From: Candidatus Sumerlaeaceae bacterium
GTDB taxonomy: Bacteria > Sumerlaeota > Sumerlaeia > Sumerlaeales > Sumerlaeaceae
Reading direction: 5' to 3'
Assembly (NCBI GenBank): GCA_049968255.1
Contig: JBMFRB010000004.1
Coordinates: 128,001-192,000, forward strand
DNA: 64,000 nt
Shown here piece after piece: positions 1,375-63,383 of this stretch. The translations under genes and the position numbers were made by a program. The notes beneath the pieces are model-generated. The model was not told the origin of the DNA, did not search any database, and worked only from the letters and a program-made list of their open reading frames with translations. Each line of letters opens with the position of its first letter. Within the stretch, counting starts at the first letter, position 1.

Positions 1375-2595
1375 TTCAACGCGGCACGATTTCCCCTGGC
1401 ACGATTTCGGGATGTGGTTACGCAAAAAGTTTTGCCGCATCTCGACCGCCCGCTCGCTGTTCCAGATTTCCTGAAGAGGTCTGCGGTTGAGATTTCCCCA
1501 GCTCGCTGCAGCCCAACAGCACGGCCGAACGTCACCGTCGGTATCTATGAGTAAAAAGTACCAGGGATAATGACACTTTTCTACAAGCGTTTTCCCGCGC
1601 GTCGAAAGTTGAGCCAGTGCCTCGCTGGCGTGCAAAACTTGAACCGCCTCGCAACCGTTTTGCGCGATTGGCTCTCCTTCGCAGTGCTGATTTATCAGTC
1701 GGCGTTCTTTCTCAGAAAGAACGTGGGAAATCAGATTTCGGAAGCCCAGGTTCACAGAGATCCTAATGGGAAGGCCTTCGGCTTTTCGAAGCGTCTGGAC
1801 CAACATTTCCCGCGCTAACCCCACATGATGTCCGATAAACTCCGCCTCCAGCTCTCGATTTTCAATTTCCATGATCTGGATGCTAAATGTCTCGAATCCG
1901 TGTTCGAGAGCAAAGTCCAGAAGCTGTGGCATTTCACGTAAGTTGCGCTCGAGAAACGTCGAGGCCAGTGTCATTGTCGGCCATGGAGAGCGCAGCTTCC
2001 GTTTCCAGCGGTTGATTGCTTCAAGCGCATGGCGCACCTTTTCGATGCTGCCCAGCACTCGCATTTGCGCATACAAGTCAGGAGTCACGGCGTCCACGCT
2101 CACGAAAAGGTGCGCCACGCCGCCTTCCACAAGCATCTGCGCGCGCGTATCGTCAATGAGGTTGGCATTTGTCGTCATTGCCAAATTGTGCGAGCCCAGC
2201 TCACGGTGACGTTCGAGGATTCGCCCGAGTTTCGAGTAAAGCAGCGGCTCGCCCAGGGGCGTCAGCGTGATCATTTCCGGGTAGGGGAGCAGATCTAAGA
2301 CCTCTTCGAGCACTTGCCCGCTAATTTCTAGCTCGCTCTTGTCCAACTGACGGAGCGCCTGCTGCGTTTCGGGTAGAGTCAGGCGACAGAAGTTGCACTT
2401 GAGGTTGCAAGTCCAATTCGTGCCGATCTGCACATGACGAGGATAGCTGGCGAGCCTGGTGCGTCCCTGCCAAAATTCCTTCCAGTTCAGGGCCGCATTC
2501 GCTGCCTTCACGGTCTCCCCGCGCGAAAGCTCCGCTCTCCACCGCAAGTGTTCGCGCTTCACCCATTGTCCAATTCGGCGGATCGTGCTGTGCAT
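1345..2595 (-). CDS. Radical SAM protein with a C-terminal SPASM/twitch domain
   Basis: CNLKCNFC (CX3CX2C), LGEPLL, TTNA; C-terminal CHYPW...DGDVRPCC...GNL...LQEIWNS...CQGKSC. Confidence 0.9.
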   Translation of the reverse strand: MHSTIRRIGQWVKREHLRWRAELSRGETVKAANAALNWKEFWQGRTRLASYPRHVQIGTNWTCNLKCNFCRLTLPETQQALRQLDKSELEISGQVLEEVLDLLPYPEMITLTPLGEPLLYSKLGRILERHRELGSHNLAMTTNANLIDDTRAQMLVEGGVAHLFVSVDAVTPDLYAQMRVLGSIEKVRHALEAINRWKRKLRSPWPTMTLASTFLERNLREMPQLLDFALEHGFETFSIQIMEIENRELEAEFIGHHVGLAREMLVQTLRKAEGLPIRISVNLGFRNLISHVLSEKERRLINQHCEGEPIAQNGCEAVQVLHASEALAQLSTRGKTLVEKCHYPWYFLLIDTDGDVRPCCWAAASWGNLNRRPLQEIWNSERAVEMRQNFLRNHIPKSCQGKSCRVELGHFGTLEE

Positions 2596-2712
2596 CAGTT
2601 TTGACTTACCGCTGCCGTGGGTAAGTGTTTATATTCTTCAGATTTGGCGCATCTCATTAAAAACTTGAGAAATTCTATCGTAATTCCACGAAAAGCTCAC
2701 AAACATGGAGCG

Positions 2713-5700
2713 ATGACTGTGCGGCGAGCACAAACGCTTGTGACGATCTTTTGCTTCGCAATGTGCGTGGTGGGCGCTGCCGGCCCAAAGCCAACCACGC
2801 CGTCTCGACGAGCCACCAGCGACAAAGCCCCGCTGCTAACTGCGCCACTTGAATTGCGCCGCGAAACCGTTGTCGCACGGCTAACTGCGCTCTCAGACGC
2901 CACAAGTATCCCTTCTGCACTCCGAGATTGGACCTCGGCCACGCTTGCCCAGGCCGCTGATGCCCTCGCCCAGGCCGAGTCGCTTGAGGCTGAGAAAGCC
3001 TCTTACGAGTCGGAGGTCTCCTCGGTGACAAGCCGCACAGAAGAACTACGCCAAAAGTTGCAAAAGCTCGCTGAGTCTCATGCGCTCGATGTTCCCACCT
3101 CGGCCACATCAGCCCAAATCGCTCAATGGCTTGCGCAAAAAGAAGCCGAAGTCGCCGAGCGCGAAAAGGCACTGCAAAGCCTCGAAGCTGAGCTGAACGC
3201 TCGCGAGCAACGCCGCTTGGCCATTCCCAAAGAAATAGCCCAGGCGCGCCAACAACTGGAAAAAATCGAAGCAGGCCAACTTGTGCCGCCAGCACCAGAT
3301 GCTTCCCCCGACTGGGAAACCCTCCGATCCGCCGCGAAAAACGCCCTTACTCTGGCTCTCCAGAAGAAAATTCAGACGCTTGAAGCCGAGCTAAAAATGC
3401 TCGACTCCACGCGAGACTTTTTTGACTTGCGCCACGAGGAAGCGCAAAAGCTGCTCGCGGCATCGAAAAACGATCTCGTTTCACTACAGAGGGCAGCAGC
3501 GGAAGCTCGCCAACGTGAAGCGCAAGAAGCAATCCAACAGGCTCGGCGCGCACGTTGGGAAGCCGCTCGCATGCACCCAGCTCTAAAAGAAATTGCGGAA
3601 GACAACGAAACCCTTGCCCGCCGTCGAGCCAGCGAGAACGGAGTGCCCGCTCGCATTGCTGCCGTTTCTGCCGAGCTCGAAGTCACGAAACAAATGCGCG
3701 CGCGGATTCAATCGAGCTTCGAGGCTGTGCGTAAGCGCCTAGAAATCCTTGGCAAAACCGCTGTGGTTGGTCAACTCATGCGCAAGGAGCGCGACGATCT
3801 GCCTTCGCCCCATGAGCTTTCGCGTCAGCTCAAGCGCTACATGGCCGAAATCAGTCAGGTGCAGGCTGAGCTCATGGACGCGCGTGAGAAGCGTTCGCAA
3901 TTGCCTGCACTTGAGAGCCGCTTGCGCACGCAGCTCGCCTTAGATGCGCGCATGACCACCGAAGACGTCGCACAGGTGGTCTCCGCTATGATCCAACAGC
4001 GGCGAACCCTGCTCGATGCACTCATCACGGACCTTGATGAGCTTTTTAATAAGCTAACAGAAATTACAACAACCTACGCTCTTCTCATTCAGGAGGTTAC
4101 TCAATACGCGACGTTTTTGGAAGAGCATATTCTCTGGATTCGTAGTGCCAGGCCCTTTTCGCTTTCTGAAATCCGCCGAGCCGCGGAGGCCCTGGCATTT
4201 CTCACTGGTCATGCAACGTTACAGCGAGTGTTCCTCACGGTATCGGGCGATATCGTGTCCCACTGGGTTTTATATCTTGGCGTCTTTGCTGCTCTTGCTG
4301 CAGGCACAATTTGGAAAAGACGGAAGCGTCATCACTTGGCCGACTTGTTCCCCCGAGAGCAACCGCATACGTTGCTGCTGGGGTCATCTCATGCCTCACA
4401 AATACTTTTCTTGCTGCTAGCTGATGCCCTCATTCCCTGGGTACTTGTTTTGACTTTTATAGGATATCGCTTACTTGAAGCCACTCAGGGTTCGACATTG
4501 ACCGATGCAGTGGCCAACGGTTTGATCCGAATTTCTCTTTTAGTTTTTCTTACGAATCTCGGATCAAGGCTCGCTCTGCTCACTGTATCGCTAACGGGCC
4601 AGTCAGCTTGGCACCGCCTCAGAAGAGCAATTATGTTGCTTGGCGGACTTTCTACCTTGCTGTTCTTTGTTTTCGTTCTCGCGCGTGAAGCATGTCCGCG
4701 TGTCCTGGGCGACTCCCTGGAACGGGTTGTTTTTCTTCTCACAATGACCGCATGGGCCTTGGCGTTTTTCTGGCTTTTTGTTCAAAAATCTGTTTGCGAG
4801 GCGGTTCTTGGACAACTCATTGGTCCACGTTACAGCCGCATACTTCCTTACTTGGCTACTGCGGGTTTTCTCATTTTGGTCGCGCTTGGCGTTCTTTCTG
4901 CGCTCGGCTTTCATTATTCAGCACTGCAAATTCTTGCTCGTCTTGCTAAGTCGTTAGCAATTATCGCCATTGTCTTTATGAGCATCTACCTGCTTGAAGT
5001 TTGGCTTCAGCGCTTACTCCGCACACACACCCTTCCCCACTTTCTGCCCGCGTCAGGGCAAAGACAGGAGAGTAGCGACCCGGCCAATGTGGCCCACTCA
5101 AGGGACACGAAGGACTCGCATGCGCTGGTGGCTCAGGTCCGCCGGATGGGACGTGCTGTCGCATGGACTCTCATTGCGATTTTGCTTTGGTTTACGTGGT
5201 CCGACATGCTGCCCGCGCTTGCGTTCATTACCCGCATCCCCCTTTGGGAAAGAGGAGAAGTGGTGGCTGGTGCACCGGCGGCAGTCACGCTAGGTGATGC
5301 ATTGCTCGCTCTGCTTGTTGCCACCATCACCGGTGTGCTTTTGCGCAACATTTCTAGCCTCGTTGAGCTTCTCCTGCTGCGCTCGACCCACCTTGACCAA
5401 GGTACCCGCTATGCCATCGCGGCGGTCGTGCGCTATGCGATCCTCATCAGCGGAGTCATAGCAGCATCGCGAAGCCTCGGTCTTACCTGGAAGAGTGTCC
5501 AGTGGCTTGCTGCAGCCGTAACAGTTGGCTTGGGCTTCGGGTTACAGGAAATTTTTGCTAACTTTGTATCAGGACTTATTCTATTGTTTGAGCGGCCGGT
5601 TCGTGTCGGCGACTGGATCACAGTCTCTGGAACGACGGGGGTTGTGACGCATATTCGCACGCGTGCCACGACAATCCGCGACGCCGATGGTAAGGAACTC

Positions 5701-6045
5701 TTGGTGCCAAACAAACTCCTGATCACGGGCGCTGTTGTGAACTGGACGCTTTCCAACACCGGGACGCGGTTGTCCTTCGACATCCGGACAACTCCGGCAG
5801 CCGATGAGCGGACCGTGCGCATAGTACTCCGCGAAATTGTCGAAAAGGAGCCACGCATCAGTGCGCATCCAGCTCCGACCGTGTTGCTCGACGGGCTTTC
5901 TAACACCGAGCAACGTTTCCGCCTTTTTGTCTATACGAACCGCATTGAAAATAGAGAAGCCGTTAAGGACTCCGTTCTCAGAGCAATTCGACAACGTTTC
6001 GCCGAATCAGAAATCGACCTTCTCTTGCTCGATTGCCAACTATGA
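2713..6045 (+). CDS. Large mechanosensitive channel, MscK/KefA-like (MscS family)
   Basis: Signal peptide, long coiled coil, many TM helices, MscS core GLGFGLQEIFANFVSGLILLFERPVRVGDWI; start moved to ATG 2713 behind GGAG. Confidence 0.9.
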   Translation: MTVRRAQTLVTIFCFAMCVVGAAGPKPTTPSRRATSDKAPLLTAPLELRRETVVARLTALSDATSIPSALRDWTSATLAQAADALAQAESLEAEKASYESEVSSVTSRTEELRQKLQKLAESHALDVPTSATSAQIAQWLAQKEAEVAEREKALQSLEAELNAREQRRLAIPKEIAQARQQLEKIEAGQLVPPAPDASPDWETLRSAAKNALTLALQKKIQTLEAELKMLDSTRDFFDLRHEEAQKLLAASKNDLVSLQRAAAEARQREAQEAIQQARRARWEAARMHPALKEIAEDNETLARRRASENGVPARIAAVSAELEVTKQMRARIQSSFEAVRKRLEILGKTAVVGQLMRKERDDLPSPHELSRQLKRYMAEISQVQAELMDAREKRSQLPALESRLRTQLALDARMTTEDVAQVVSAMIQQRRTLLDALITDLDELFNKLTEITTTYALLIQEVTQYATFLEEHILWIRSARPFSLSEIRRAAEALAFLTGHATLQRVFLTVSGDIVSHWVLYLGVFAALAAGTIWKRRKRHHLADLFPREQPHTLLLGSSHASQILFLLLADALIPWVLVLTFIGYRLLEATQGSTLTDAVANGLIRISLLVFLTNLGSRLALLTVSLTGQSAWHRLRRAIMLLGGLSTLLFFVFVLAREACPRVLGDSLERVVFLLTMTAWALAFFWLFVQKSVCEAVLGQLIGPRYSRILPYLATAGFLILVALGVLSALGFHYSALQILARLAKSLAIIAIVFMSIYLLEVWLQRLLRTHTLPHFLPASGQRQESSDPANVAHSRDTKDSHALVAQVRRMGRAVAWTLIAILLWFTWSDMLPALAFITRIPLWERGEVVAGAPAAVTLGDALLALLVATITGVLLRNISSLVELLLLRSTHLDQGTRYAIAAVVRYAILISGVIAASRSLGLTWKSVQWLAAAVTVGLGFGLQEIFANFVSGLILLFERPVRVGDWITVSGTTGVVTHIRTRATTIRDADGKELLVPNKLLITGAVVNWTLSNTGTRLSFDIRTTPAADERTVRIVLREIVEKEPRISAHPAPTVLLDGLSNTEQRFRLFVYTNRIENREAVKDSVLRAIRQRFAESEIDLLLLDCQL

Positions 6046-6055
6046 GGTGGCTGAA

Positions 6056-6787
6056 GTGAGTTCCGGACAAAAACATCAAGACGTTGGGGCTTCCGCTACG
6101 TGCGGCTCGATCGGGGCGCCGGAGAGCCGGAAAGCCCGTTGCATCTGGGGAATCTATGTGATCACAGACGCCAGGTTAGCTGGGCGTCCCCATGCTGAAT
6201 TGTGTAAGGAAATTGTCGCCGGTGGCGGTCGTGTCTTACAACTGCGCGACAAGCGACTGTCGCGCGATGAGTTGCGACCCATTGCTCGCGAGATCCGCAA
6301 AATCACAGCCGATCATGGTGTCATTTTCATCGTCAACGATGATCCTTATCTCGCAGCCGAGGTCGAGGCCGACGGGGTTCATGTCGGTCAGGAAGACCTT
6401 GACGTCCCTGCAGTCCGCGCGATTGTCGGCGAAGAAAAAATTGTCGGACTCTCCACGCACAATATCGCGCAGGCCTTTGCCGCAGAAAAACTCAGCGTGG
6501 ACTATATCGGGGTCGGCCCGATTTTTCCCACCCGCACAAAAGAAAATCCGTGGCCGACTGTCGGCGTGGAACTGATCCACCAGGTCCGCCAGAAAACATC
6601 GCATGTGATTACGGCCATTGGCGGTATTCGTGAAGAGCATATCCGCGACCTCGTGATTGCTGGCGCGCACAACATTGCACTGATTGGCGATGTGATGACG
6701 GCGCCTAACATACGCGAGAAAGTCTCCCGACTGTGTGAACTCTACACCCAGGCGCTAGAAGAACGCTGTAAGCCTCGCCGAGAATAG
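6056..6787 (+). CDS. thiE: Thiamine-phosphate synthase
   Basis: IYVITD, QLRDK, FIVNDD, DGVHVGQED, GLSTH, DYIGVGPIFPTRTK, AIGGI; GTG start approximate. Confidence 0.92.
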   Translation: MSSGQKHQDVGASATCGSIGAPESRKARCIWGIYVITDARLAGRPHAELCKEIVAGGGRVLQLRDKRLSRDELRPIAREIRKITADHGVIFIVNDDPYLAAEVEADGVHVGQEDLDVPAVRAIVGEEKIVGLSTHNIAQAFAAEKLSVDYIGVGPIFPTRTKENPWPTVGVELIHQVRQKTSHVITAIGGIREEHIRDLVIAGAHNIALIGDVMTAPNIREKVSRLCELYTQALEERCKPRRE

Positions 6788-6808
6788 GGGAGAACAAGCC
6801 TCCTCCAC

Positions 6809-7882
<1,074 letters not shown>

Positions 7883-7981
7883 AGTTCTGCCTATCGTTTC
7901 ATTTCGAGAAAACATTTTTTCTAGAATATAGTACTCAACAAGTACACATTCTTGTGTCTATTTAGTGTGAGAACATTGCCA

Positions 7982-10081
7982 ATGAGCATAACAAGGCACT
8001 CCCAGTCGGATGAACCGCGTTTCACTAATCGCCTTGCGAACGAAACGTCCTTATATTTGCGTCAGCACGCACACCAGCCCGTAGATTGGTACCCTTGGGG
8101 CAACGAGGCTCTTGAACGTGCTCGCCGCGAGAACAAGCCCGTCTTTATCTCCATTGGCTACAGTGCGTGTCACTGGTGTCACGTAATGGCACACGAGTCT
8201 TTCGATAATGAAGAAATTGCCTTCTTTCTCAATCAGCACTTCGTCTCGATCAAGGTGGACCGAGAAGAGCATCCCGACGTGGACGCAGTTTATATGAACG
8301 TCTGCATGGCACTCAACGGCTCCGGGGGATGGCCCTTGACCGTATTTACAACGCCATCGCTTCATCCGATTTTTGCGGGAACTTATTTTCCGCCGACCGA
8401 CCGCGGAGGGCGGATTGGCTTCCGCACTCTGCTCGAACGCATTCTGCGCCTTTGGCAAAGCGATCCGCAGGCCCTCCAACAACAAGCGCTCACGATGACC
8501 CGCGAGCTTCAACGCTTGCTCGCCCATGAGCCGTCCCTTGCTCCTGTGACTGCTGCACCGCGCGAGCTTCTCATTGCTGCCGCTGAGGAAAATTTCGACT
8601 CGCAGCATGGCGGCTTCGGCCATGCGCCAAAATTTCCGCCCGATACCCTCTTGAGTGCGCTTCTAGCAGCGGGCACAAAATACCGCGATACACGCGCGCT
8701 CAATATGGTCGAGTTCACGCTCGACGCTATGATGCACGGCGGCCTGTACGACCAGCTTGAAGGGGGCTTTGCGCGTTATTGCGTGGACGAAGACTGGACG
8801 GTTCCACATTTCGAAAAAATGCTCTACAATCAGGCATTGCTGATCCCGCTGTACGCAGATGCCTCCGTTGTGTTCGAGCGAGCAGATTTTCTCGACGTAG
8901 CTCGCGAAACCGCTGAGTGGGTCCTCTGCAAAATGCAATCGCCAGAGGGTGGATTCTACTCGGCGCTCGACGCCGACAGTGAAGGCGAAGAGGGGAAATA
9001 CTATGTCTGGACTTCCGAGGAGCTTACCGAAGTTCTCGGTCCTGAGTTGGCGGAATTTGCAACGACGTATTTTGAAATTCCTCGAGGTGGAAATTTCGAG
9101 CGGGGATCGAGCGTTTTGCGACGAGCCCGTCACCCACAGCACTTAGCGGCACGCTTTGGCCTGACGCCTGAGATGGCCGCGCAGCGGATCCAAGATATTC
9201 GTTCGCGTCTACGCACTGCTCGCGAGCGACGTATCCCGCCTGCTACCGACGACAAAGTGATCTTGGCATGGAACGCCCTCATGGTTTCTGGGCTCCTGCG
9301 TCTCGCTCAAGTAAGTGGCATTCCACGATATGCCGAAGTGGCTCAAACGACTGTAAGGTATCTGTGGGATCGTCTTAGGCCAGCAAAGGGAAAGCTTTAC
9401 CGAATCCTCGCCGTCAAAGAAGCTAAAATTCCCGCCATTTTGGAGGACTATGCTTATCTCATTCAAGCAATGCTTGATCTTTACGAGTATACGCTCCTGC
9501 CCGAATATCTCGCGCTTGCACGTGAACTCGCCGAGGAAGCGGTGAACAAGTTTGTGGAGCCCCAGAGGGGCCGAATCTACTCGGCACTACCCGGTGATTC
9601 ATCTCTCATTTTACCCCTCGAAAACATTCACGACAGCGCTTTGCCATCGCCAGCGATAAGTTTAGTGAAATCTTTGCTCCGCCTCGATCTCATCACGGCG
9701 ACAGATGAGTGGGCCCACGTGCGCCACCTGGCTTTGTCCCGCATCCGCAAGGTATTCCGTCTCTCACCCCTCTCTGCGGCGACGGCCTATCTTGTCGCGG
9801 AGCTCGATTCCTGCCCCATTGTTTGCACCTTTTCCGGGAATCTCCTCGCGCCGCAGCTGCGTGAGATTCATTCAGTGCTCATGCAAAATTACCTACCTAC
9901 CCGAATCGTACGCGTAGCTCACACCGAAAGCCAAGATATGTCAGCTCCAACCTCGGCGGACTCGTTTGTTGTGAGTGGTGCAAGCCTTAAAATTTGTCTA
10001 GGCGATCGGTGCCTCGAGCCGATCTACTCAGCTGCGCACCTCAAGGCGCTGATGGGCAACGAGTTACTGGCCTCTACTTGA
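7982..10081 (+). CDS. Thioredoxin-domain protein, YyaL/SSP411 (DUF255) family
   Basis: [56 protein letters not shown]. Confidence 0.92.
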
Positions 10082-16047: not shown

Positions 16048-17118
16048 TTAGTTTTGAGGATAGGTCACGTCGCTAGGGGTGGATAGGGCGCTAGCCTCCT
16101 CCTCCGCCTGGCGGCTAGGTAGGGTCTCATCCAGCACAGCTCGCCGGATTTGCCAGAATTGATAATCCAACGTATCAACTAAGTATTCGCGATAAGCGCG
16201 ATGAAAAAACTCTCTGGCCTTGGCTCGCTGCTGATGTGCGAGACACAGGACCCCTAAATAGTAATTTGTCCCGAAATCCTCGGGGCCAATCATCAGCACA
16301 CGCTCGAAGCAATCCAGTGCCTCATCGTATCGGCCAAGCCGAGCATTGCAGCGTCCACGCACCGCAAGCACAGGGTCTTCGGATTGGTCTACTGGCGGAA
16401 TTCTGTCGAGAAACGACAACGCTGTTTCGTAGGCACAAAGCATCTCGCAGGCTACGGCACACGCGAACAAATCACCTGCATCAAGCCCCCCCTGCATGGG
16501 CTCCGCCTGCATGAGTGCTAAAAAACGCTCGTACTCCTTCGCGCGAAAAGCCCGCACCGCAGCACGCCGCAAAGCCAAGCGCGAGCGTCGCCCTTCCGTT
16601 GGTAGCAGACGCTCATCGTTGGGCAGGATAGCGGGCCGTGGTGCGAAGAAACGCCCGGCCTCGAGCCATTGATCCTCCACCCACTCTGTGATGCGGACGA
16701 GAAAACCGCGGTTGGTCGCGAAACCATGGCGCTCGAAATACATGCGTCCTAAATCTTGTGCGCCTGAGGCAAATTGAGCTAGCGCCCAGTAGGACCCCAC
16801 AACTTCATTGCGCGGCGCTAGCTCTTTAGCTCTGCTCCAGAGTGCCGTTGCTTTCTCCCACTGCGCTGCATCCCATGCTGCTATACCAGCAAACAAATAA
16901 GCGGGCACAAAATCGGTGTGCTTCGCAATGAGCTTATCGAGAAGCTCAAGCGCTTGCGATGAGTGCCCCGCCTCATTCAGAATCACTGCGCGTTGCAATG
17001 GTAGCCGCGGATCAGCGCTTCGCTGCTCGGTCGATAACAACAATTGGCAAGCCTCCTGCCACTGGCCGAGGACAACCAGTTTGCTAGCTTTTCTGAGGGC
17101 GTAACTTGACATCGCCAT
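16048..17118 (-). CDS. Tetratricopeptide-repeat protein
   Basis: TPR-like helical repeats, e.g. RGRCNARLGRYDEALDCFERVL and YYLGVLCLAHQQRAKAREFFHRA. Confidence 0.75.
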   Translation of the reverse strand: MAMSSYALRKASKLVVLGQWQEACQLLLSTEQRSADPRLPLQRAVILNEAGHSSQALELLDKLIAKHTDFVPAYLFAGIAAWDAAQWEKATALWSRAKELAPRNEVVGSYWALAQFASGAQDLGRMYFERHGFATNRGFLVRITEWVEDQWLEAGRFFAPRPAILPNDERLLPTEGRRSRLALRRAAVRAFRAKEYERFLALMQAEPMQGGLDAGDLFACAVACEMLCAYETALSFLDRIPPVDQSEDPVLAVRGRCNARLGRYDEALDCFERVLMIGPEDFGTNYYLGVLCLAHQQRAKAREFFHRAYREYLVDTLDYQFWQIRRAVLDETLPSRQAEEEASALSTPSDVTYPQN

Positions 17119-17162
17119 CTCTTTGCTTGCGTATGACTTCCTGTGACAAGGGAATTGCATCA

Positions 17163-17459
17163 ATGGATATCGCGCGCATTATAGGCACAATTGTGGCGAC
17201 GCGGAAAGTTCCTTCACTCGAAGGGGTGACCATCTGCGTCATCCAGCCACTTAATGCGCAGTTGCGCGAGGTTGGTCAGCCACTGATTGCCACCGATGCC
17301 ACATCACGCCATGGCATTGGCGAAATTGTTTATTACGTCGCCAGCGGAGATGCGGTTTTTACAGGACTGCAGGGACAAGATATTCCTGTAGACGCTGCAA
17401 TCGTCGGAATTGTGGATTCGTTAGATGTGCCGGAGAACTTGGAGCAACTGGAATTTTAG
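17163..17459 (+). CDS. Bacterial microcompartment vertex (BMC-P) protein, EutN/CcmL family
   Basis: MDIARIIGTIVATRK...L.G...GIGEIV...PVDAAIVGIVD. Confidence 0.92.
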   Translation: MDIARIIGTIVATRKVPSLEGVTICVIQPLNAQLREVGQPLIATDATSRHGIGEIVYYVASGDAVFTGLQGQDIPVDAAIVGIVDSLDVPENLEQLEF

Positions 17460-22394: not shown

Positions 22395-23225
22395 TCAGCC
22401 GCTGGTCCCACCATCGCGCGGATTTTGCTCACTCGGTGTGCTGCCATTTGCGATAATGTCCAGTGCATAGTTCGACAGTGCATCTGCGAGCTTGTTATTT
22501 TCCCGTGAAATGTAATCAATAGAAAATTTACTAAATTGTTTAGCAAGTTGATGAGCGAGCTTTGCTCTCTCGTAGAGATCCGCGTTCTTAATTCTGTACT
22601 CCCCCTTCATCTGTTTGACGAGCAGCTCGCTGTCGCTAAGCACAAACAACTGCTCGATTCCTAACTGAATCGCTGTCTTGAGCGCTTCTATGAGCGCACA
22701 GTACTCAGCAACATTGTTCGTAGCCGTGCCAATTGGTTTTGCGTCTTGTGCGATTTTCCGCCCATCCATGTCGAAGATGGCAAAACCGATTCCTGCCGGT
22801 CCAGGGTTGCCACGCGAGGCGCCGTCAATATAGACCTTAGCTGTTTTCACTTTTCCACGGACTGACTCGTCCACGAACGGCGCTAACTCCGCTTTTATTT
22901 TCTTGTCTCGCGCCGCGGAGGAACTCCTGGGAGATTTTTGAGTTTTGGCGCCACTCCCAACAATATCCACATCTGTCGATGGTCCCTCCAGTTCCCATGC
23001 CGGCATTAGTCCTTCTATCTTTGCCAAATGACGCAGAAGTTCGGCGCAGTGATGAAACGCTGTGCGCAGCGGCGTGTCGGCAATGTCAGGATACCGCTCG
23101 AAGACCTCAGAAATATCCCCGTGGCGCGTAGCCAGAATATCGAGCACCCGATAGAACGGAACCTCGCTTTTCTGGATACTCAGGGCTTTCTGGAGAAGCT
23201 TCTTTGTTTCACGATCAAGTGGCAT
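22395..23225 (-). CDS. rnhA: Ribonuclease HI family protein with an N-terminal extension
   Basis: YIDGASRGNPGPAGIG, TNNVAEY, SDSELLVKQM, RENNKLADALSN. Confidence 0.88.
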   Translation of the reverse strand: MPLDRETKKLLQKALSIQKSEVPFYRVLDILATRHGDISEVFERYPDIADTPLRTAFHHCAELLRHLAKIEGLMPAWELEGPSTDVDIVGSGAKTQKSPRSSSAARDKKIKAELAPFVDESVRGKVKTAKVYIDGASRGNPGPAGIGFAIFDMDGRKIAQDAKPIGTATNNVAEYCALIEALKTAIQLGIEQLFVLSDSELLVKQMKGEYRIKNADLYERAKLAHQLAKQFSKFSIDYISRENNKLADALSNYALDIIANGSTPSEQNPRDGGTSG

Positions 23226-43242: not shown

Positions 43243-43378
43243 GCGCCTTTTTTGCCCGAACGGCCATTGACGCTGCAACTGTGTTTCGCGCACGTGAAGA
43301 GTATTGACATCCAGAGGCTAACCCCGCAGTAAAGCGGTTCTCTGATGTTGTCACTTGATCTTTCGCGGTAGGTGTAAA

Positions 43379-44632
43379 ATGGCTAAAGCGATCATCTGCA
43401 CGGTCGGGACGGTGTTTGAAGGACGCGAGAACATCCTCAGTGTCCTAGCCGACGAAATCAAGCGCCTCGAACCCGCCTATGTTGCCTTCATCGTTTCGAA
43501 AGAAAGTCGCAATGCTGCAGAGAAAATTGCAGCAAAGGCAGGGCTGTCGGAGAATTCTGTCACATATGTAGCGCTCGAAACGCCTCACGACCTGAACGAA
43601 GTTTTTGCTCGCACGAACGAAACCATTCGCCACCTGCTGGCCGCTGGCTTTTCGCATGCGGACATATCGCTCAACTACACGAGCGGAACCAAGGTTATGG
43701 GCAGCGGCGCAGTTCTTGCCGCAGTGTTCAACCAATGTTCCGAACTGCGCTACATTTACGAAGGGGGAGCCGAAGGCGATCGTGTCATCATCACCCGTCC
43801 GTTGGCAGTCAGCGCCTACCGCGATCTGCTCTTGGCAAGCCGCCTGATCGAAGAATTGCGGTTCCAGTCGGCATCGGACCTCCTCGGGCGCATTGACGCA
43901 TCGCTTCTTTCTGCCTATGATGTCACGGTACTCAATTCACTCAGAAAGATCGCTGAGGCCTACAATGCTTGGGACACTTTCAATCCGGCGCATTTTGTCG
44001 CTGTCATGAGCGATCTTCCTTCGTCCGTAGACGCGTGCAAAAAATTCATGGTAGATTCTGGTACACTCGGGCTGCTAGCCCAGCTCGCGAGCGATCTCTC
44101 CCAGGAAAATTACTCGCCCCTGATCTTTGCCGACATGGTGAACAATGCAGTGCGCCGCATGCTCGAAGGCAAATATGACGACGCTGTCGCCCGCCTTTAC
44201 CGTGCCCTCGAAATGCTCGCGCAGTGTGTGCTCCGACGTTACGGAATCAACACCGACGATGTGGACACTCGCAAAATCCCGCCTCGTTATCGCGTCAACT
44301 TCGAAGCATTGCGTTCGATGGACGACGGAATGGTACGCATCGGCATGCGCAAGGCCTATGAGTTGTTAGCGATTCTGGAAGCGCCGCTCGGCTTGCGTTT
44401 TCAAAGCATGAAGGAGCTCCTGCCACTCCTTCAGTCGCGCTCAAAATCCATTCTCGCTCACGGCACCAGCCGGATTGCCAAGAGCGATAGCGAGCAATTC
44501 CTCTCGCATGCGCTCGACCTCTTCACGAGCGAGATTCCCGACTTTTGCAACATATGCCACAACCTGCAATTCCCGTGGCTACGTGGCAATTACGAGTGCT
44601 CGATGATCCTAAATCGTGCATCCCAGGCGTGA
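43379..44632 (+). CDS. CARF-HEPN protein, Csm6-like (TIGR02710/Cas02710 family), orphan
   Basis: N-terminal CTVGT and NYTSGTKVM (CARF); WDTF; NAVRR...YDDAVARLYRALE; HEPN-like RSKSILAHG. Confidence 0.85.
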   Translation: MAKAIICTVGTVFEGRENILSVLADEIKRLEPAYVAFIVSKESRNAAEKIAAKAGLSENSVTYVALETPHDLNEVFARTNETIRHLLAAGFSHADISLNYTSGTKVMGSGAVLAAVFNQCSELRYIYEGGAEGDRVIITRPLAVSAYRDLLLASRLIEELRFQSASDLLGRIDASLLSAYDVTVLNSLRKIAEAYNAWDTFNPAHFVAVMSDLPSSVDACKKFMVDSGTLGLLAQLASDLSQENYSPLIFADMVNNAVRRMLEGKYDDAVARLYRALEMLAQCVLRRYGINTDDVDTRKIPPRYRVNFEALRSMDDGMVRIGMRKAYELLAILEAPLGLRFQSMKELLPLLQSRSKSILAHGTSRIAKSDSEQFLSHALDLFTSEIPDFCNICHNLQFPWLRGNYECSMILNRASQA

Positions 44633-57995: not shown

Positions 57996-58916
57996 TTACG
58001 GCGTGCCACCGTCCTCCGCGATGACGTTCTCGAGAATGCCGATCTTCTCAATTTGAATGCGCACAACGTCGCCAGGTTGAAGAAAGAGAGGTGGGTTTCG
58101 CCACACGCCCACGCCGGAAGGTGTGCCGGTTGAGATAATGTCGCCCGGTTCTAGCGAGATGCCTTGCGAAATGAACTCGATAAGCTGGGCCACAGAGAAA
58201 ATCATCCTGCTTGTGTGACTGTGCTGCATGAGCATCCCGTTGACTGTCGTGATGAGTTCAAGCTGTTGGGGATCCGGAATTTCATCGGTCGTCACCACAC
58301 ACGGCCCTGTCGGCGCAAAGCCATCCATGCTTTTCGCACGCAGCCATTGGCCATCAGCCTTCTGGATATCGCGCGCGCTGACATCATTGACAACGGTATA
58401 GCCCAAAACGTACTCCAGCGCTTGCTCTGACGGAATTCTCTTTCCGCCACGACCGATGATCACACCTAGCTCCCCTTCGAAGTCGAGTTTCGTCGTCACG
58501 CTAGGCCGAGGCACGACGTCCCCATGCCCCCGGATAGCGTTAGCAAATTTTGCAAAAATCACGGGTGACTTTGGCGGCTCGAGATTTTGTTCCTCGCAGT
58601 GATCGCGGTAATTGAGCCCAACGCAGATGAATTTGCGAGGAGCTGGGATAGGCGGCAGAATGCGCACAGTGTCCGGGTCATAATGAGTGCAATCTTTAAG
58701 CACGCCTTTCTGCTCAGCGGCTTCAAGCAGTTGCTGAAGCTCATGAACGCCACGCGAGGGATTTGCTGCCAACGCAAGCAGATCAGCCTGATCCACAAAA
58801 TCAGGGTTTGGGTGACCGAGCTTTTCACACAGCTCCGCAAAACTTATCAGTCGGTCTCCATGCTGAGTTCCGAGGAGAGCCTTGCCCTCCTTAGCGATAA
58901 ACCGATAAAGTTTCAT
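57996..58916 (-). CDS. Fumarylacetoacetate hydrolase family protein
   Basis: CVGLNYRDH, DFEGELGV, NDVSARD, AKSMD, GDIISTGTPSGVG. Confidence 0.93.
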   Translation of the reverse strand: MKLYRFIAKEGKALLGTQHGDRLISFAELCEKLGHPNPDFVDQADLLALAANPSRGVHELQQLLEAAEQKGVLKDCTHYDPDTVRILPPIPAPRKFICVGLNYRDHCEEQNLEPPKSPVIFAKFANAIRGHGDVVPRPSVTTKLDFEGELGVIIGRGGKRIPSEQALEYVLGYTVVNDVSARDIQKADGQWLRAKSMDGFAPTGPCVVTTDEIPDPQQLELITTVNGMLMQHSHTSRMIFSVAQLIEFISQGISLEPGDIISTGTPSGVGVWRNPPLFLQPGDVVRIQIEKIGILENVIAEDGGTP

Positions 58917-58934: not shown

Positions 58935-60146
58935 TCATTCGATCGCAGGAACACTTTTCTCCCAGCGTTCTTCAAGCCATCGCATGGCCGATCGATTGGC
59001 GATGGCAAAAACATCAGCAAGTGGGACGTTTTTTTCCCTAGCGATACGTCGGCAATCCTCGAATTCCGGTGTGATCTTCAAAACTTGGTCGCCCCAAAAG
59101 CCGACTTTCATCCGAACCGGCCCCCACGGCGTCGGAACTTCATGGAGTTCCCTCCGCAGGCAATAGCGATCGCAGGGAATGACCTTGACGCCAAACGTCG
59201 TCGACTCGCGCAAAAGCACCTCTAGAATGCTTTGGACCTGCTCCGGTGTCGTCAGGCACTGCACGCTCACCGCCGGCCGATTTTTCTTCATTTGGATCGG
59301 CGCAAACGCGACATCGAGGGCGCCGGCTGCAAAAAGTCTCTCCTGAAGGTAGCCGAACAGTTCCCCTGTCATGTCGTCTATCTCCGTCTGAAGAAGCACA
59401 AGCTCGCGCCGCTCGAGAGGTAGCTCATCTGCACTGTCGCCAAGAAAAACCCTCAGGCAATTGCTAAAGCCTTTGTCCTCGCGCCCTCCTGCACCGTAGC
59501 CCACTTGCTCAATTTTCAAGTGCCAAGGCTGTGCGAACTCCGAAACAAGGGTTCGCAAAATCGCCGCACCAGTTGGTGTTGTCAGCTCACCTTTTCTGCC
59601 ACCATCGGTGATGGGCACACCCCGAAGCAGCAGAGCTGTTGCAGGGGCAGGAACTGGCAATTCTCCGTGAGCAGCTCGCACTCTACCGCTTCCCACCACA
59701 ATCTCCGAAGCTGTTGCGTGACCTATTCCTAAATACTCATAGCACCACATCGCTCCAACAATGTCCACGATTGCATCGAGCGCACCCACTTCATGAAATT
59801 GAACCTTCTCCATGGGCATCTTGTGCACCGTCGCCTCTGCCTCTGCCAACAGCCGAAAGCACGCGATGGCGCGCTCTTTGACCGAAGAGGGAAGCTCGGA
59901 ATTGCTAATAATAGACTGAATTTCACCAAAACCACGGTGATGGTGCTGGTGTTGGCATTCCACAATGGCCTGCGTGGCGATAATGCCTCCCCGAAGAACT
60001 CTCTGCGCGGAAATAGAATATCCCTCGATCGGCAGCGACGCCAATGCACGCCGTAGCTCCTCAAGCGGTACACCGACATCCAAAAAGGCACCAAGCACCA
60101 TGTCGCCGCTGATTCCGCTGTAACAGTCGAAGTGTGCGCTTTTCAT
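58935..60146 (-). CDS. larC: Nickel pincer cofactor biosynthesis protein LarC (Ni insertase)
   Basis: DCYSGISGDM.LGA, HQHHHR, FHEVGALD.IVD, PVPAPAT, TPTGAA, MKKNRP, PEFED. Confidence 0.93.
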   Translation of the reverse strand: MKSAHFDCYSGISGDMVLGAFLDVGVPLEELRRALASLPIEGYSISAQRVLRGGIIATQAIVECQHQHHHRGFGEIQSIISNSELPSSVKERAIACFRLLAEAEATVHKMPMEKVQFHEVGALDAIVDIVGAMWCYEYLGIGHATASEIVVGSGRVRAAHGELPVPAPATALLLRGVPITDGGRKGELTTPTGAAILRTLVSEFAQPWHLKIEQVGYGAGGREDKGFSNCLRVFLGDSADELPLERRELVLLQTEIDDMTGELFGYLQERLFAAGALDVAFAPIQMKKNRPAVSVQCLTTPEQVQSILEVLLRESTTFGVKVIPCDRYCLRRELHEVPTPWGPVRMKVGFWGDQVLKITPEFEDCRRIAREKNVPLADVFAIANRSAMRWLEERWEKSVPAIE

Positions 60147-60931
60147 GCGCGTCTCCTTTTCGTGGCTCTGCGCCCATGCTGGTTGATGAAATGTGCCACA
60201 AGTGCTGCGCCAAAACCATTGTCAATGTTCACCACTGCAACCCCGCCGCTGCACGAGTTGAGCATTCCGAGCAGCGCTGCAATTCCTCCAAAACTTGCCC
60301 CATAACCAATACTTGTCGGCACAGCGATCACAGGCACCGCTACGAGCCCTGCCACCACACTCGGTAAGGCGCCTTCCATACCTGCGGCAACAATGATCAC
60401 CCGGGCGCGCAACAGGACCTCGCTAGCCGCATTCATCAACCGATGCAAGCCAGCAACGCCCACGTCATAAACCCGCTTCACCCGGTTGCCCATGATCTCA
60501 GCGCACACAGCAGCTTCTTCAGCGACTGGCAGATCAGATGTGCCAGCAGAAAGCACCGCGATGAGTCCCTCTTTGCGAGGTTTACCGGCAGCTTTGGCCA
60601 ACACACGAGCCTCCGGATGATAGGTGAGGCCCTTGTGGCGCGCCATGACGTACTCAGCCTTGTCAGCCGAAATCCGCGTGCACAAGATGGTTTGTCCCGC
60701 CTCATCCATGCGCTTCACGGCCTCGAGAATTTGTTCTTGCGTCTTGTTTGCACCGTAGATGGCTTCAGGCACACCACGCCGATGTAAGCGATGAAGATCG
60801 AGTTTTGTGTGCATCAACTCCGCATATCCGCTCACGAAATTGACGTGGAGTTTCTCGCGGGCCTGCTCGGGCGACAACTTCCCCTGCGCGACCTGTGTCA
60901 GCAGATCAAGGATGCAATCGTCATTTCTCAT
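60143..60931 (-). CDS. larB: Nickel pincer cofactor biosynthesis protein LarB (PurE-like)
   Basis: AGTSDLPVAEEA, DVGVAGLHRL, AGMEGALPSVV, PTSIGYG, NSC, VNIDNGFGA. Confidence 0.94.
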   Translation of the reverse strand: MRNDDCILDLLTQVAQGKLSPEQAREKLHVNFVSGYAELMHTKLDLHRLHRRGVPEAIYGANKTQEQILEAVKRMDEAGQTILCTRISADKAEYVMARHKGLTYHPEARVLAKAAGKPRKEGLIAVLSAGTSDLPVAEEAAVCAEIMGNRVKRVYDVGVAGLHRLMNAASEVLLRARVIIVAAGMEGALPSVVAGLVAVPVIAVPTSIGYGASFGGIAALLGMLNSCSGGVAVVNIDNGFGAALVAHFINQHGRRATKRRRA

Positions 60932-60979
60932 AGTGCTACAGCTTGTCTCGCAGCCAAGTAACTGCAAGCCCTACTCGCT

Positions 60980-61651
60980 TCACGGTGGGCCAATCCCAAA
61001 GGCGCGCATAAAGTCTGCACGTCCATCGCGAAGTTCTACCCGTCCGTTTGACATTAGTGCGTTTTCGCGATCATGAGCCTCACCGTGGGGATAGCGTACG
61101 TCCTTCGCTGACGGATTGAAACTATACTCGACCGGCACCCACAGGCATCTGGCGAGCCAAATATCGTGCGAGTCTCTGTCGACATTGTTTGGCGCTCCAA
61201 TAGGGCCACCGGTGTCTATCGCTGAATTGTTGTAGGCATACCGGAAGCGCTGAAGCCGATCGCCGCGAAATTGCTCGCGGTAGCTTGGGCAAAACAGGTA
61301 CTCATCGCTAGTCAGGTAGCCCATCCGAACCAGAACCCGCGGAACCCCATCCCAGCTTCCATTTGCAGCCGGTCCATCCCCTGGCGTGGTTTGGCCCATG
61401 CTTTCTTGCAAACCAGCCGTCCCGTCAGCAGGTGGATATCGGTTGTTATCAAGTTTATATGCGTACAACGCATACGCGATCGCTTTGAGGTTCGAGGCGC
61501 AACGCGCCTGGTTGGCGCGTTCTTTGGCATGCTTGAGATTCACCAATGCGATCGCGCTAAGGATCGCCACAATGGCGACCACGATGAGAAGCTCAATGAG
61601 AGTAAAAGCGACGGAAAGACGTCGTGCGGAAATCACTCGTACAAAGCCCAA
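60980..61651 (-). CDS. Prepilin-type N-terminal cleavage/methylation protein (DUF1559/H-X9-DG-like pseudopilin)
   Basis: A|FTLIELLIVVAIVAILSAIAL, AKERA..ARC.SNLK.I, FCPS, C-terminal PH...NALMSNGRV. Confidence 0.88.
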   Translation of the reverse strand: MGFVRVISARRLSVAFTLIELLIVVAIVAILSAIALVNLKHAKERANQARCASNLKAIAYALYAYKLDNNRYPPADGTAGLQESMGQTTPGDGPAANGSWDGVPRVLVRMGYLTSDEYLFCPSYREQFRGDRLQRFRYAYNNSAIDTGGPIGAPNNVDRDSHDIWLARCLWVPVEYSFNPSAKDVRYPHGEAHDRENALMSNGRVELRDGRADFMRAFGIGPP

Positions 61652-62451
61652 TCTTCCTCGCGAACAGTTGCCACAGGGGTCGAATGGATTGCGGCCACTG
61701 CATCCAGGTCAAATCCTGCCGTTGGCGGCGCATTCATCGCATTTCCCGGATCATTGACGATATGACCATGGCTATCCATCGTGGGCGCAATATTCGTGGT
61801 GCCAGTGTCAGTAATCTTGACGTATTTCGCGTAGCTCAGTCCCACAGCCGCGAGATCAAAAGAGTCCCCGCCACTGACGTGAGGATCGAAGGGCGAGATT
61901 CCGTTTGTCGGCGAACTAAAAACTGGCGTCACGCCAGCAAGTCCATGATAGCGCCATTTTTCATAGAGCCCCGCTGTAGTTCCAGGATCATCGAACTCGA
62001 AAGGAAATGTGAACCACGTGAGGCTGTCCGTGCTCACCGCAACGGTGGCTGTTTCGCAAAATACAAAATCCGGATAGCCGATGGGTTGAAATGGATTCTC
62101 AAACACGGTGAAATCGGAGCCAGGCCCATCCACGATCACGTGGCTTGTAAATTCGAGAACGATGGAGCCACCCACTCCCAGCGAGAGAAGTTCCGTTTCG
62201 TCTGCGTTGGGCAGCTCTGGGTTGCTATTGCCGTGCGGTGGACCGAGGACATTGTGCGGCAGATACGATTGCCCGAACCCGGCTCCAAATCCTGGTGTAA
62301 ATGATAAAACGCCGTCAGGGAAACACTGGGCAGCAGCTAGGCCACAGTCAAAGTTTAGACCTGACGCAAGGCAAAAAACGATTCCGGAATTTGCGGCGAC
62401 GTTTCGCAAAAAACGCACAACGCCGTTCCCGCACTCAATTCGATGCGTCAT
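61633..62451 (-). CDS. Secreted/cell-surface protein, putative cobalamin-binding
   Basis: Signal-like N terminus; LLSLGVGGSIVLEF...IVDGPGSDFTVFENPF, VAVSTD, GFDLDAVAAIH; directly downstream of a B12 riboswitch. Confidence 0.7.
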   Translation of the reverse strand: MTHRIECGNGVVRFLRNVAANSGIVFCLASGLNFDCGLAAAQCFPDGVLSFTPGFGAGFGQSYLPHNVLGPPHGNSNPELPNADETELLSLGVGGSIVLEFTSHVIVDGPGSDFTVFENPFQPIGYPDFVFCETATVAVSTDSLTWFTFPFEFDDPGTTAGLYEKWRYHGLAGVTPVFSSPTNGISPFDPHVSGGDSFDLAAVGLSYAKYVKITDTGTTNIAPTMDSHGHIVNDPGNAMNAPPTAGFDLDAVAAIHSTPVATVREEDWALYE

Positions 62452-62501
62452 CCTAAGTCCTCCACTTCTCTCTCAGCGAAGAAGTTTTTTTTCGGAGGGG
62501 T

Positions 62502-62673
62502 CCGGCGGCACCGTCTTCTGACTGACAGATCACCCTACTTTCCGCGCCTTCCCAGGGGAGCAATGCCCCAGTGGCCTAGATGCGGATTTCGTCCCTGATC
62601 ACAGCGGCGTGCCCGTGAGGGATTTGCACCCTCTTCCGACAGATGCCCCCGATAGGCATCACTATGCCGTCGG
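62502..62673 (-). ncRNA. Cobalamin (B12) riboswitch
   Basis: Minus strand reads GGAAgagGGTGcAAATCCctcACGGGCACGCCGCTGTGA...GCCACTG...TGGGAAGGC...AGTCAGAAGAC (B12 box); P1 formed by CCGACGGCA/TGCCGCCGG. Confidence 0.9.
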
Positions 62674-62846: not shown

Positions 62847-63383
62847 GTGGCGATGCTCCGGATAAAAGTGACGTTAGCGGCGCTCATCGTGGCAGTGGTA
62901 GGCTTGTGCACAGCATCGGCAAGCGATTTTTCGATAAGCGGGCGGCCTCGATGGCTCAAAGTGAAAAGCGAACAAGAGCCAGTCGTTGTGCGCGACTTGG
63001 GCACGCATCGCGAGCTAGGCCAGCTCGCGAAGGGCGATCTGATCCTTGCTTTTGGTTCCACCGAGAAATGGGTGACTTTCTCCTACCGCGGCCGCATCAG
63101 TTACATCCCTGCATCTGCGGCTGAAGATGCCTATCCCGTCGAGAAAGGCGAGCCAGTCTGGCGCGGCTTTGGCCCCACACTCGAAGAGCGAGTAAAACAG
63201 ACGCAAAAGGAATTGCTAGCGCTTGCTGACGATCAAGACCGCCTGCTCGATCCCGACTTGAAGAAACCCACTCCCGCCCAGCAACAGGCCGCGTTGCAGG
63301 GAGGGCAGCCGCTGTCGGGAATGCAGAACGCCGTGCGCGAGGGACTCACTCCTCAGCGTGGTCGTGGACATGGGTACTATTAG
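62847..63383 (+). CDS. Hypothetical secreted protein with an SH3-like N-terminal domain
   Basis: Signal peptide ending ASA; LGQLAKGD...KWVTFSYRGRISYIP resembles bacterial SH3. Confidence 0.6.
   Translation: MAMLRIKVTLAALIVAVVGLCTASASDFSISGRPRWLKVKSEQEPVVVRDLGTHRELGQLAKGDLILAFGSTEKWVTFSYRGRISYIPASAAEDAYPVEKGEPVWRGFGPTLEERVKQTQKELLALADDQDRLLDPDLKKPTPAQQQAALQGGQPLSGMQNAVREGLTPQRGRGHGYY

Follow-up and report, generated by a model that had tools for sequence, protein, structure and literature searches.

A cobalamin riboswitch ahead of a putative BtuH-like surface protein and a coupled DUF1559-like pilin in Sumerlaeota

In a 64,000-nt stretch from a Candidatus Sumerlaeaceae bacterium (contig JBMFRB010000004.1, positions 128,001 to 192,000; hereafter the window), a cobalamin riboswitch lies just ahead of a gene for a 272-aa, putatively secreted protein, here called csp, and the end of csp overlaps the start of a gene for a divergent DUF1559-like prepilin. 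We found that csp is a member of a large unnamed family linked to cobalamin riboswitches in most of the loci sampled, that it is probably related, at a distance, to the domain with which BtuH binds B12, and that its pairing with the pilin is conserved in one clade and recurs outside it. Taking the riboswitch, the csp family with its B12-locus context, the distant likeness to BtuH and the conserved pairing as directly supported, we propose, with moderate confidence, that the two genes form a riboswitch-repressed module of a BtuH-like cobamide binder and a DUF1559-like pilin dedicated to holding, presenting or exporting it. In such a module csp would bind B12, the ribosome-binding site would be sequestered when the vitamin is bound, and the pilin would contact csp or otherwise support its function.

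The riboswitch-led gene pair

An earlier reading of this DNA, made from the sequence alone (the sequence-only reading), had placed a cobalamin riboswitch at 62502-62673 on the minus strand. This interval is contained in a match to the Rfam cobalamin model RF00174 that scores far above the gathering level, covers the model over its full length (positions 1-189 of 189) and is the sole Rfam match at that level in the whole window. The aptamer does lie upstream of the 272-aa gene, as had been read, but the spacing is 42 nt from its 3' end to the ATG at 62451 on the same strand rather than the roughly 50 nt first given. A Shine-Dalgarno sequence, GGAGGA, stands 6 nt ahead of this ATG, and a CUUCU/AGAAG hairpin sits between it and the CCCCUCC with which it could pair. 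The minimum free energy fold of the leader does pair CCUCC with GGAGG (-22.7 kcal/mol), and in a Sumerlaeota homologue (locus L001) the arrangement CCCCTCC...CTTCT..AGAAG-TGGAGGA-ATG is retained, with both pairing partners kept and the loop changed. However, the fold that would sequester the ribosome-binding site is no better than that of shuffled sequence (z-score -1.34, not significant), which weighs against this part of our proposal; therefore, translational control through anti-Shine-Dalgarno pairing is plausible only.

The product of csp carries a hydrophobic N-terminal stretch, from which we infer that it is exported by the Sec pathway. Its translation contains LSLGVGGSIVLEF..VDGPGSDFTVFENPF and AGFDLDAVAAIH, and the motifs SLG.GG.I...F...I.DG.G.DF.VFEN.F and GFDLDAV that had been quoted for it are both present. 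No L-x-x-C lipobox was read at the csp N-terminus, which thus does not mark it as a surface lipoprotein, and no Pfam family, DUF4465 included, matched csp at E<=0.01. Modelled by AlphaFold2 with its family alignment, csp is a confident β-sandwich (pLDDT 87.9, pTM 0.82).

The downstream gene encodes a protein of the type IV pilin/type II secretion pseudopilin class, with a GspG-like N-terminus that matches the prepilin domain TIGR02532 (23.6 bits, cut-off 16.3); it shows the leader, G/A at -1, F at +1, E at +5 and hydrophobic α-1 helix of this class. Two starts are conceivable: the TTG at 61651 gives the 19-bp overlap with csp described previously, and the GTG at 61636 gives a 4-bp GTGA overlap and a protein of 218 aa, just as long as its nine closest homologues (P0144-P0152). 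Both motifs noted earlier are found in the translation (...SVA/FTLIELL and YLFCPSY). The H-X9-DG-like tail had been called degenerate, and so it is in the window pilin, PHGEAHDRENALMSNGRVE: it reads H..EN....NG, with NG in place of a DG that is not conserved in the family, and only PHG and EN.L are invariant around it. Across 33 family sequences the mean column identity is 57% and 40 columns are invariant, among them F16, T17, L18, E20 (E5 when counted from the processing site) and L21, three Cys, GPAANGSWDG, FRYAYN and PHG..EN.L. The AlphaFold2 model (pLDDT 93.5) shows a helix at residues 18-69 followed by a globular head; Foldseek against the PDB matched pilins through the helix only, and the head had no structural match.

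As for its relation to DUF1559, the window pilin scores 16.7 bits with PF07596 over 43 residues, below the cut-off of 23.3. Nevertheless, hhalign aligned its family over 180 columns, at a probability of 98.6%, with a bona fide DUF1559/H-X9-DG pilin from another csp locus (L007, described below), and a supporting lead comes from an Atlas feature search, in which clusters of DUF1559 proteins scored 0.92-0.95.

Conservation of the csp-pilin pairing

To survey csp homologues in other genomes, one genome per species was scanned, and the best 80 of at least 575 confirmed stretches (from at least 602 pattern matches) were analysed as loci, numbered from L001. By tblastn, a pilin homologue of 51-78% identity lies directly downstream of csp in L001-L004, that is, in four of the five Sumerlaeota loci, and the stop and start codons of the two genes overlap in L001-L003 as they do in the window. 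The pairing is retained while csp diverges to about 48% identity. We also compared the sizes of the longest contigs on which csp and pilin clusters occur, with equal size serving as a proxy for a shared contig: the sizes were equal for 28 of 69 close csp clusters (23 of 35 when only contigs of at least 4 kb were considered) and for none of the 51 distant ones.

A maximum likelihood tree of 81 csp domains unites the window with L001-L004 in one clade (support 100/94) and places L007 elsewhere. Having a pilin nearby requires at least two origins on this tree, and none of 200 bootstrap trees is compatible with a single one. L007 (positions 1057-7474) has a riboswitch followed by a csp gene with a PEP-CTERM signal, then a second PEP-CTERM protein (327 aa), a DUF1559 pilin whose H-X9-DG motif is canonical, and an OmpA/LysM protein; the first of its two cobalamin riboswitches leads an adjoining BtuF/FecCD/ABC unit. 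The link between csp and the pilin is thus clade-specific but conserved, and L007 is a second, independent case with a DUF1559 pilin. The two genes, which the sequence-only reading had described as coupled, are accordingly linked to each other in the Sumerlaeota-type clade and once more outside it.

Several of these results weigh against a dedicated partnership. Prepilin-motif ORFs occur only in L001-L004, L007 and L020, so that a pilin accompanies csp in just 6 of the 80 loci, plus the window; the pilin of L020 is of a different, GspG-like type and lies just upstream of the riboswitch; and the pairing in Sumerlaeota might be inherited synteny. These points bear on a rival explanation, namely that only csp serves B12 acquisition and that the pilin is an ordinary subunit of a type IV or type II filament, co-transcribed as a bystander. 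Besides the restriction of the pairing to one clade and one further locus, it would agree with the BtuB/BtuG-type neighbours among which the csp family works elsewhere, and with the many pilin-like paralogues that Planctomycetota-Verrucomicrobiota-Chlamydiota (PVC)-like and related phyla possess. Yet a bystander would not readily account for the start-stop overlap in the window and three homologous loci, for a pairing kept to such csp divergence and reflected in the contig sizes of close but not distant clusters, for the DUF1559 pilin in the riboswitch-led row of a phylogenetically separate csp, or for a pilin head that is unusually conserved. We regard the bystander explanation as rather unlikely.

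A further feature follows the pilin-paired clade. The window csp ends in W268-A-L-Y-E272 and the L004 csp in W-H-F-Y-E; a C-terminus of the form W-x-hydrophobic-[YH]-[DE] was found in 7 of 3077 ORFs of at least 100 aa from the window and the loci, all seven in Sumerlaeota riboswitch operons. Five of the bearers are Sumerlaeota csp proteins; the other two, in L004 and L020, are proteins unrelated to csp that are encoded between riboswitch and csp, end in ..KWLMYE and ..EWQLHD, and gave neither a Pfam match nor a PDB sequence match. Of the close csp clusters, 60 of 69 have this tail, against 2 of 51 among the distant ones, so that its distribution goes with that of the pilin-paired clade. Its presence on two different proteins of the same operons suggests a sorting or docking tag, and would point to a signal specific to this lineage.

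The csp family and its relation to BtuH

Csp is a member of a large unnamed family: 2669 of 5224 candidates in a 90%-identity collection matched at E<=1e-3, and a profile of 81 csp domains matched 5537 representative clusters at E<=1e-3, 3114 at E<=1e-10 and 828 at E<=1e-30. Several relatives are named 'cell surface protein', and the closest are labelled Candidatus Sumerlaeota. The longer ones carry immunoglobulin (Ig)-type or PKD repeats ahead of the csp domain, and C-terminal anchors differ by lineage, comprising the tail of the type IX secretion system (T9SS; Por_Secre_tail), PEP-CTERM and dockerin. Among structure neighbours of csp in Bacteroidota, two Atlas clusters have DUF4430, which we take to be a transcobalamin-like B12-binding domain, in 12% and 53% of their members, plus a T9SS tail. 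The nearest named NCBIfam is LIC_13355 (NF033170), a Leptospira lipoprotein family; csp scores 46.5 bits with it against a cut-off of 120, over residues 91-203 only, and thus falls outside it. LIC_13355 has been studied for the binding of host components (PMC11891782).

The genomic context of the family is that of B12 acquisition. RF00174 matched, at Rfam gathering level, on the strand of the csp homologue in 57 of the 80 loci (12/15, 13/15, 9/15, 9/15, 11/16 and 3/4 by subset), which bears out the proposed link between csp homologues and B12 riboswitches. All 58 matches are on the csp strand and none on the opposite one, and they lie upstream of csp in 56 loci; those in L024 and L031 are barely above threshold. 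For neighbour counts, 76 loci were available, the plus-strand ORF table holding no csp ORF in L022, L027, L032 and L061. A TonB-dependent receptor cluster (about 690 aa; membership by BLAST clustering, with one representative checked by Pfam and found to have the receptor and plug domains) is at most four plus-strand genes from csp in 37 of them. Moreover, 25 of 58 proteins adjacent or fused to csp match DUF5074/YncE-like, that is BtuG-like, propellers; in seven loci the protein directly after the receptor, of about 630-650 aa, consists of a propeller and a csp domain, and the fusion protein of L023 matches BtuG1 (8blw_B) at E 1e-8, through the propeller. BtuF/FecCD/ABC genes were found in six csp loci. 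At the family level, csp therefore belongs to B12-regulated transport loci with BtuB and BtuG, although the window locus has neither. The sequence-only reading had called the unit a non-canonical vitamin-acquisition module; this description suits the pairing with a pilin, whereas the binder family itself is canonical and is found in BtuB/BtuG loci in most phyla.

Six loci (L044, L048, L051, L059, L060 and L071) share the order TonB receptor, csp, DUF5074 propeller, acyltransferase, GatC and CTP_transf_3. Two csp loci are labelled as unexpected organisms, L043 as Nitrosopumilus (an archaeon) and L051 as Patescibacteria, which may reflect binning errors or gene transfer. In L063, a SAM-I/IV riboswitch (7941-8047, minus strand; 45.9 bits, gathering score 41.1) is located a few kb from the cobalamin-riboswitch unit.

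The sequence-only reading had proposed a resemblance of csp to BtuH-type domains. Searched against 177,635 distinct PDB sequences at E<=10, a profile of 81 csp-family sequences (A4) matched only 8blw_B, in its H-domain (E 0.0068), and 7biz_A, which is BtuH2 (E 0.42); a profile of the 29-member Bacteroidota/Ignavibacteriota/KSB1 clade (A5) matched only 8blw_B (E 0.013). The C-terminal extension of BtuG1 (8blw_B) is a BtuH domain according to PMC10404256. The aligned stretch is the SLG.GG.I..F....DF.V..N.F motif, in which the family-invariant N119 and F121 of csp align with chain residues N299 and F301 of 7biz. These would correspond, with a presumed offset of +100, to Asn399 and Phe401 of BtuH2, of which PMC8941943 reports that the former contacts the B12 phosphate and the latter makes its van der Waals contact to the lower ligand. 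In structure space, the best Foldseek match of the csp model in the PDB was 8blw_B, which is BtuG1 of B. thetaiotaomicron (E 1.6e-4), and 7biz came in fourth place (E 8.7e-4). The proposed resemblance is thus supported as remote homology, BtuH-domain proteins being the only PDB sequence matches of these two profiles and ranks 1 and 4 in Foldseek. We consider a distant kinship of csp with the B12-binding domain of the BtuH proteins probable.

Other results weigh against this assignment and against a role of the whole family in B12 capture. In sequence, the similarity to BtuH is marginal (E 0.0068, 0.013 and 0.42) and extends over about 50-65 residues, and the narrower A1 profile missed both BtuH proteins at E<=1; 4oqz, which this profile matched at E 0.67, is spurious. 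The BtuH2 contacts Gln333, His476, Tyr510, Trp511, Trp577 and Leu578 are outside the aligned stretch. The Foldseek TM-scores by query are 0.38 (8blw_B) and 0.35 (7biz), with an rmsd of about 12 Å, and CBM32/discoidin domains, AlyQ CBM32 included, score alike; therefore, Foldseek alone points to a shared fold class only. AlyQ is itself a structural neighbour reported for BtuH2 by its authors (PMC8941943, section 8). Finally, 23 of the 80 csp loci have no riboswitch match, and the receptor-csp-propeller subclade of six loci has no cobalamin riboswitch in the DNA scanned, with a tRNA gene just upstream in four of them (L044, L051, L059 and L060).

One could accordingly argue that csp is no cobamide binder but a discoidin/CBM32-like surface protein, for instance a glycan or matrix adhesin, merely tied to B12 status: CBM32, discoidin and muskelin domains do as well as the BtuH proteins among its Foldseek matches, its nearest named NCBIfam is the Leptospira one, and more than a quarter of the loci have no riboswitch. 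Such an adhesin would, however, hardly be expected to have, in 57 of 80 loci, a cobalamin riboswitch that is always on its own strand, neighbours such as BtuB-type receptors, BtuG-like propellers and BtuFCD, a domain fused to BtuG-like propellers and to DUF4465, and PDB sequence matches to BtuH-domain proteins only. Taken together, we find this explanation highly improbable.

Surroundings, proposed working and known systems

The features of the unit and of the genes that follow it are given in Table 1.

Table 1. Coordinates of the csp-pilin unit, of the genes downstream and of the additional tail-bearing proteins (positions in the window unless a locus is named)
Feature	Position	Strand	Basis or remark
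Cobalamin riboswitch aptamer, RF00174	62494-62682	minus	Rfam 81.1 bits, gathering score 31.5, E 2.2e-18
Putative expression platform	62452-62500	minus	CCCCUCC (62500-62494) predicted to pair with GGAGGA (62463-62458)
csp, 272-aa putatively secreted β-sandwich protein	61633-62451	minus	ORF translation, AlphaFold2, Foldseek, family profiles
Prepilin-type gene, divergent DUF1559-like pilin	60980-61651	minus	start at TTG 61651 (223 aa) or at GTG 61636 (218 aa)
LarB	60143-60967	minus	NF033503, 283.6 bits; 12-nt gap after pilin
LarC (LarC1 + LarC2)	58935-60146	minus	overlaps LarB by 4 bp
FAA-hydrolase-family gene	57996-58916	minus	follows LarC
Tail-bearing protein, about 376-445 aa	L004:3755-4885 and L020:3659-5032		ends ..KWLMYE and ..EWQLHD

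By Pfam, none of the 52 window ORFs of at least 110 aa is a TonB receptor, a BtuF-type binding protein, FecCD or an energy-coupling factor (ECF) component, in agreement with the earlier statement that the unit has no btuB, btuF or ECF gene; the same ORF scans found no filament machinery genes in the window, and the csp unit has no propeller gene. Downstream of the pilin, the first terminator-like site is at 57929-57914 and none lies between pilin and LarB. The transcription unit may therefore extend through LarB, LarC and the FAA hydrolase and exceed a two-gene module, which counts against our delimitation of it. Terminator-like sites (9 against 5.6 +/- 2.2 expected) and promoter-like sites (1 against 2.2 expected) are uninformative in the window, save for the pilin-LarB gap. 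We rejected a functional tie of these three genes to csp and the pilin, as their order recurs only in L001, the locus most closely related to the window (1 of 80 loci); LarE and LarA were not seen in the window.

On the other side of the riboswitch, a divergent ORF of 178 aa (62847-63383, plus strand) encodes a protein that is hydrophobic at its N-terminus and matched neither a Pfam nor an NCBIfam family. The window also encodes a stand-alone Csm6 HEPN-domain protein (43355-44632, plus strand), a EutN/CcmL microcompartment vertex protein (17106-17459, plus strand) and an RNase H/RVT_3 protein (22395-23225, minus strand).

Based on these findings, the module may operate as follows. At low cellular cobalamin, the leader would leave the ribosome-binding site free; once cobalamin is bound, the CCUCC beside the aptamer would likely sequester GGAGG. 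Beyond the cytoplasmic membrane, across which the Sec pathway would export it, csp most likely serves as a binder of cobamides, and its conserved D-F-x-V-F-E-N-x-F region, aligned with the Asn399/Phe401 contacts of BtuH2, would be involved in binding. The coupled pilin may be a partner particular to this lineage, by which csp is held, presented or exported; it would take the place of the tails (T9SS, PEP-CTERM or dockerin) and of the BtuB/BtuG neighbours that the domain has in other phyla, and the clade-specific W-x-hydrophobic-Y-E tail may mediate the contact between the two proteins.

A bolder version of this proposal, which we find very doubtful, is that the Sumerlaeota-type DUF1559-like pilin forms or tips a dynamic type IV filament or pseudopilus which carries csp, and likewise the co-regulated protein with the same C-terminal tail in L004 and L020, by means of that tail, and which moves cobamide across the outer membrane via a secretin, replacing the TonB-dependent BtuB/BtuG gate. 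It is hardly likely that the pilin instead handles B12 itself, held in the inner membrane by its N-terminal helix while its conserved head takes cobamide from csp in the periplasm like a BtuF shuttle, with no filament involved: the strongly conserved head (three invariant Cys, GPAANGSWDG, FRYAYN and PHG..EN) with no PDB structural match, the lack of a BtuF-type gene in the unit and the Pfam name of DUF1559, 'SBP_bac_10', would fit such a shuttle, but the pilin has no similarity to any known B12-binding fold, its invariant E5 and prepilin leader favour processing and filament assembly, and L007 has BtuFCD next door besides its pilin.

In our literature search we found no paper linking cobalamin riboswitches with prepilins or DUF1559 with cobalamin, and nothing relevant on Sumerlaeota with cobalamin or on a cobalamin riboswitch with a cell surface protein. 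BtuH is already known; the broad riboswitch-linked family, the pilin pairing and the C-terminal tail were not found in the literature searched. If our assignment of csp is correct, B12 capture of the BtuH kind would be one branch of a riboswitch-wired family, thousands strong, in many environmental phyla, and not mainly a matter of gut Bacteroidota. Likewise, a DUF1559-like pilin would be tied to a defined nutrient by regulation and conserved gene coupling, which would give a concrete starting point for testing what this very large class of pilin-like proteins does. The presence of csp and a pilin under one B12 switch hints at pilin-assisted vitamin capture in a little-studied phylum; should uptake by a pilus prove true, it would provide the first function for a member of the DUF1559 class and the first pilus-assisted route of vitamin uptake.

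Among known systems, the BtuH domain of Bacteroides thetaiotaomicron (BtuH1, BtuH2 and the H-domain of BtuG1/BtuGH) is one of the closest to csp. It is of like size (about 220-250 residues), it shares the SLG.GG.I..F....DF.V..N.F core, in which the Asn aligns with the BtuH2 phosphate contact, and the context of the csp family (B12 riboswitch, BtuB and BtuG) is alike. BtuH is described as occurring alone, behind Ig repeats and in propeller fusions (PMC13616437), and the csp family has the same three architectures: the stand-alone domain, Ig repeats ahead of the domain, and the BtuG-type propeller fusion. The two differ in that the FEN triplet of csp is QGN or LGN in BtuH proteins and, as a point against the kinship, in that BtuH proteins are lipoproteins and the window csp has no lipobox. 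In addition, BtuH is mainly a Bacteroidota protein in the account of the same review, whereas the loci that hold csp homologues bear labels such as Myxococcota, Sumerlaeota, Binatota, KSB1, Ignavibacteriota and Fermentibacterota.

The comparisons with BtuJ and BtuG that the sequence-only reading had also envisaged do not apply to the csp domain. BtuJ/DUF4465 proteins, which are augmented β-jellyroll B12 binders, resemble csp as secreted proteins of the β-sandwich type in B12-riboswitch loci. We rejected csp as a DUF4465/BtuJ protein (PF14717), given the lack of a Pfam match and the separation of the two domains in fusion proteins; the BtuJ structures 9FCT and 9I2L were not among the 50 Foldseek matches listed for csp. 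In P0137 (1990 aa) and P0138 (1516 aa), an N-terminal csp-like part at about residues 83-280 precedes three and two DUF4465 B12-binding domains, respectively, which lie at about residues 690-900, and P0137 also has a dockerin. Csp was likewise rejected as a BtuG/BtuK protein on account of its fold, a β-sandwich and not a seven-bladed β-propeller; these B12-binding lipoproteins are instead frequent neighbours or fusion partners of the csp family.

The window pilin has the prepilin leader and FTLIELL helix in common with the DUF1559/H-X9-DG prepilins of Planctomycetota and related phyla, a class of unknown function, and differs from them by its score under the Pfam cut-off and by the unconserved DG of the motif. 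We know of no pilus-presented binding system for a vitamin. The idea that a filament subunit presents a ligand-binding protein is nonetheless shared, by analogy only, with pilus-presented binding modules such as the DNA receptors of competence pili and modular minor pilins, examples of which are described in PMC6561018 and PMC8179133.

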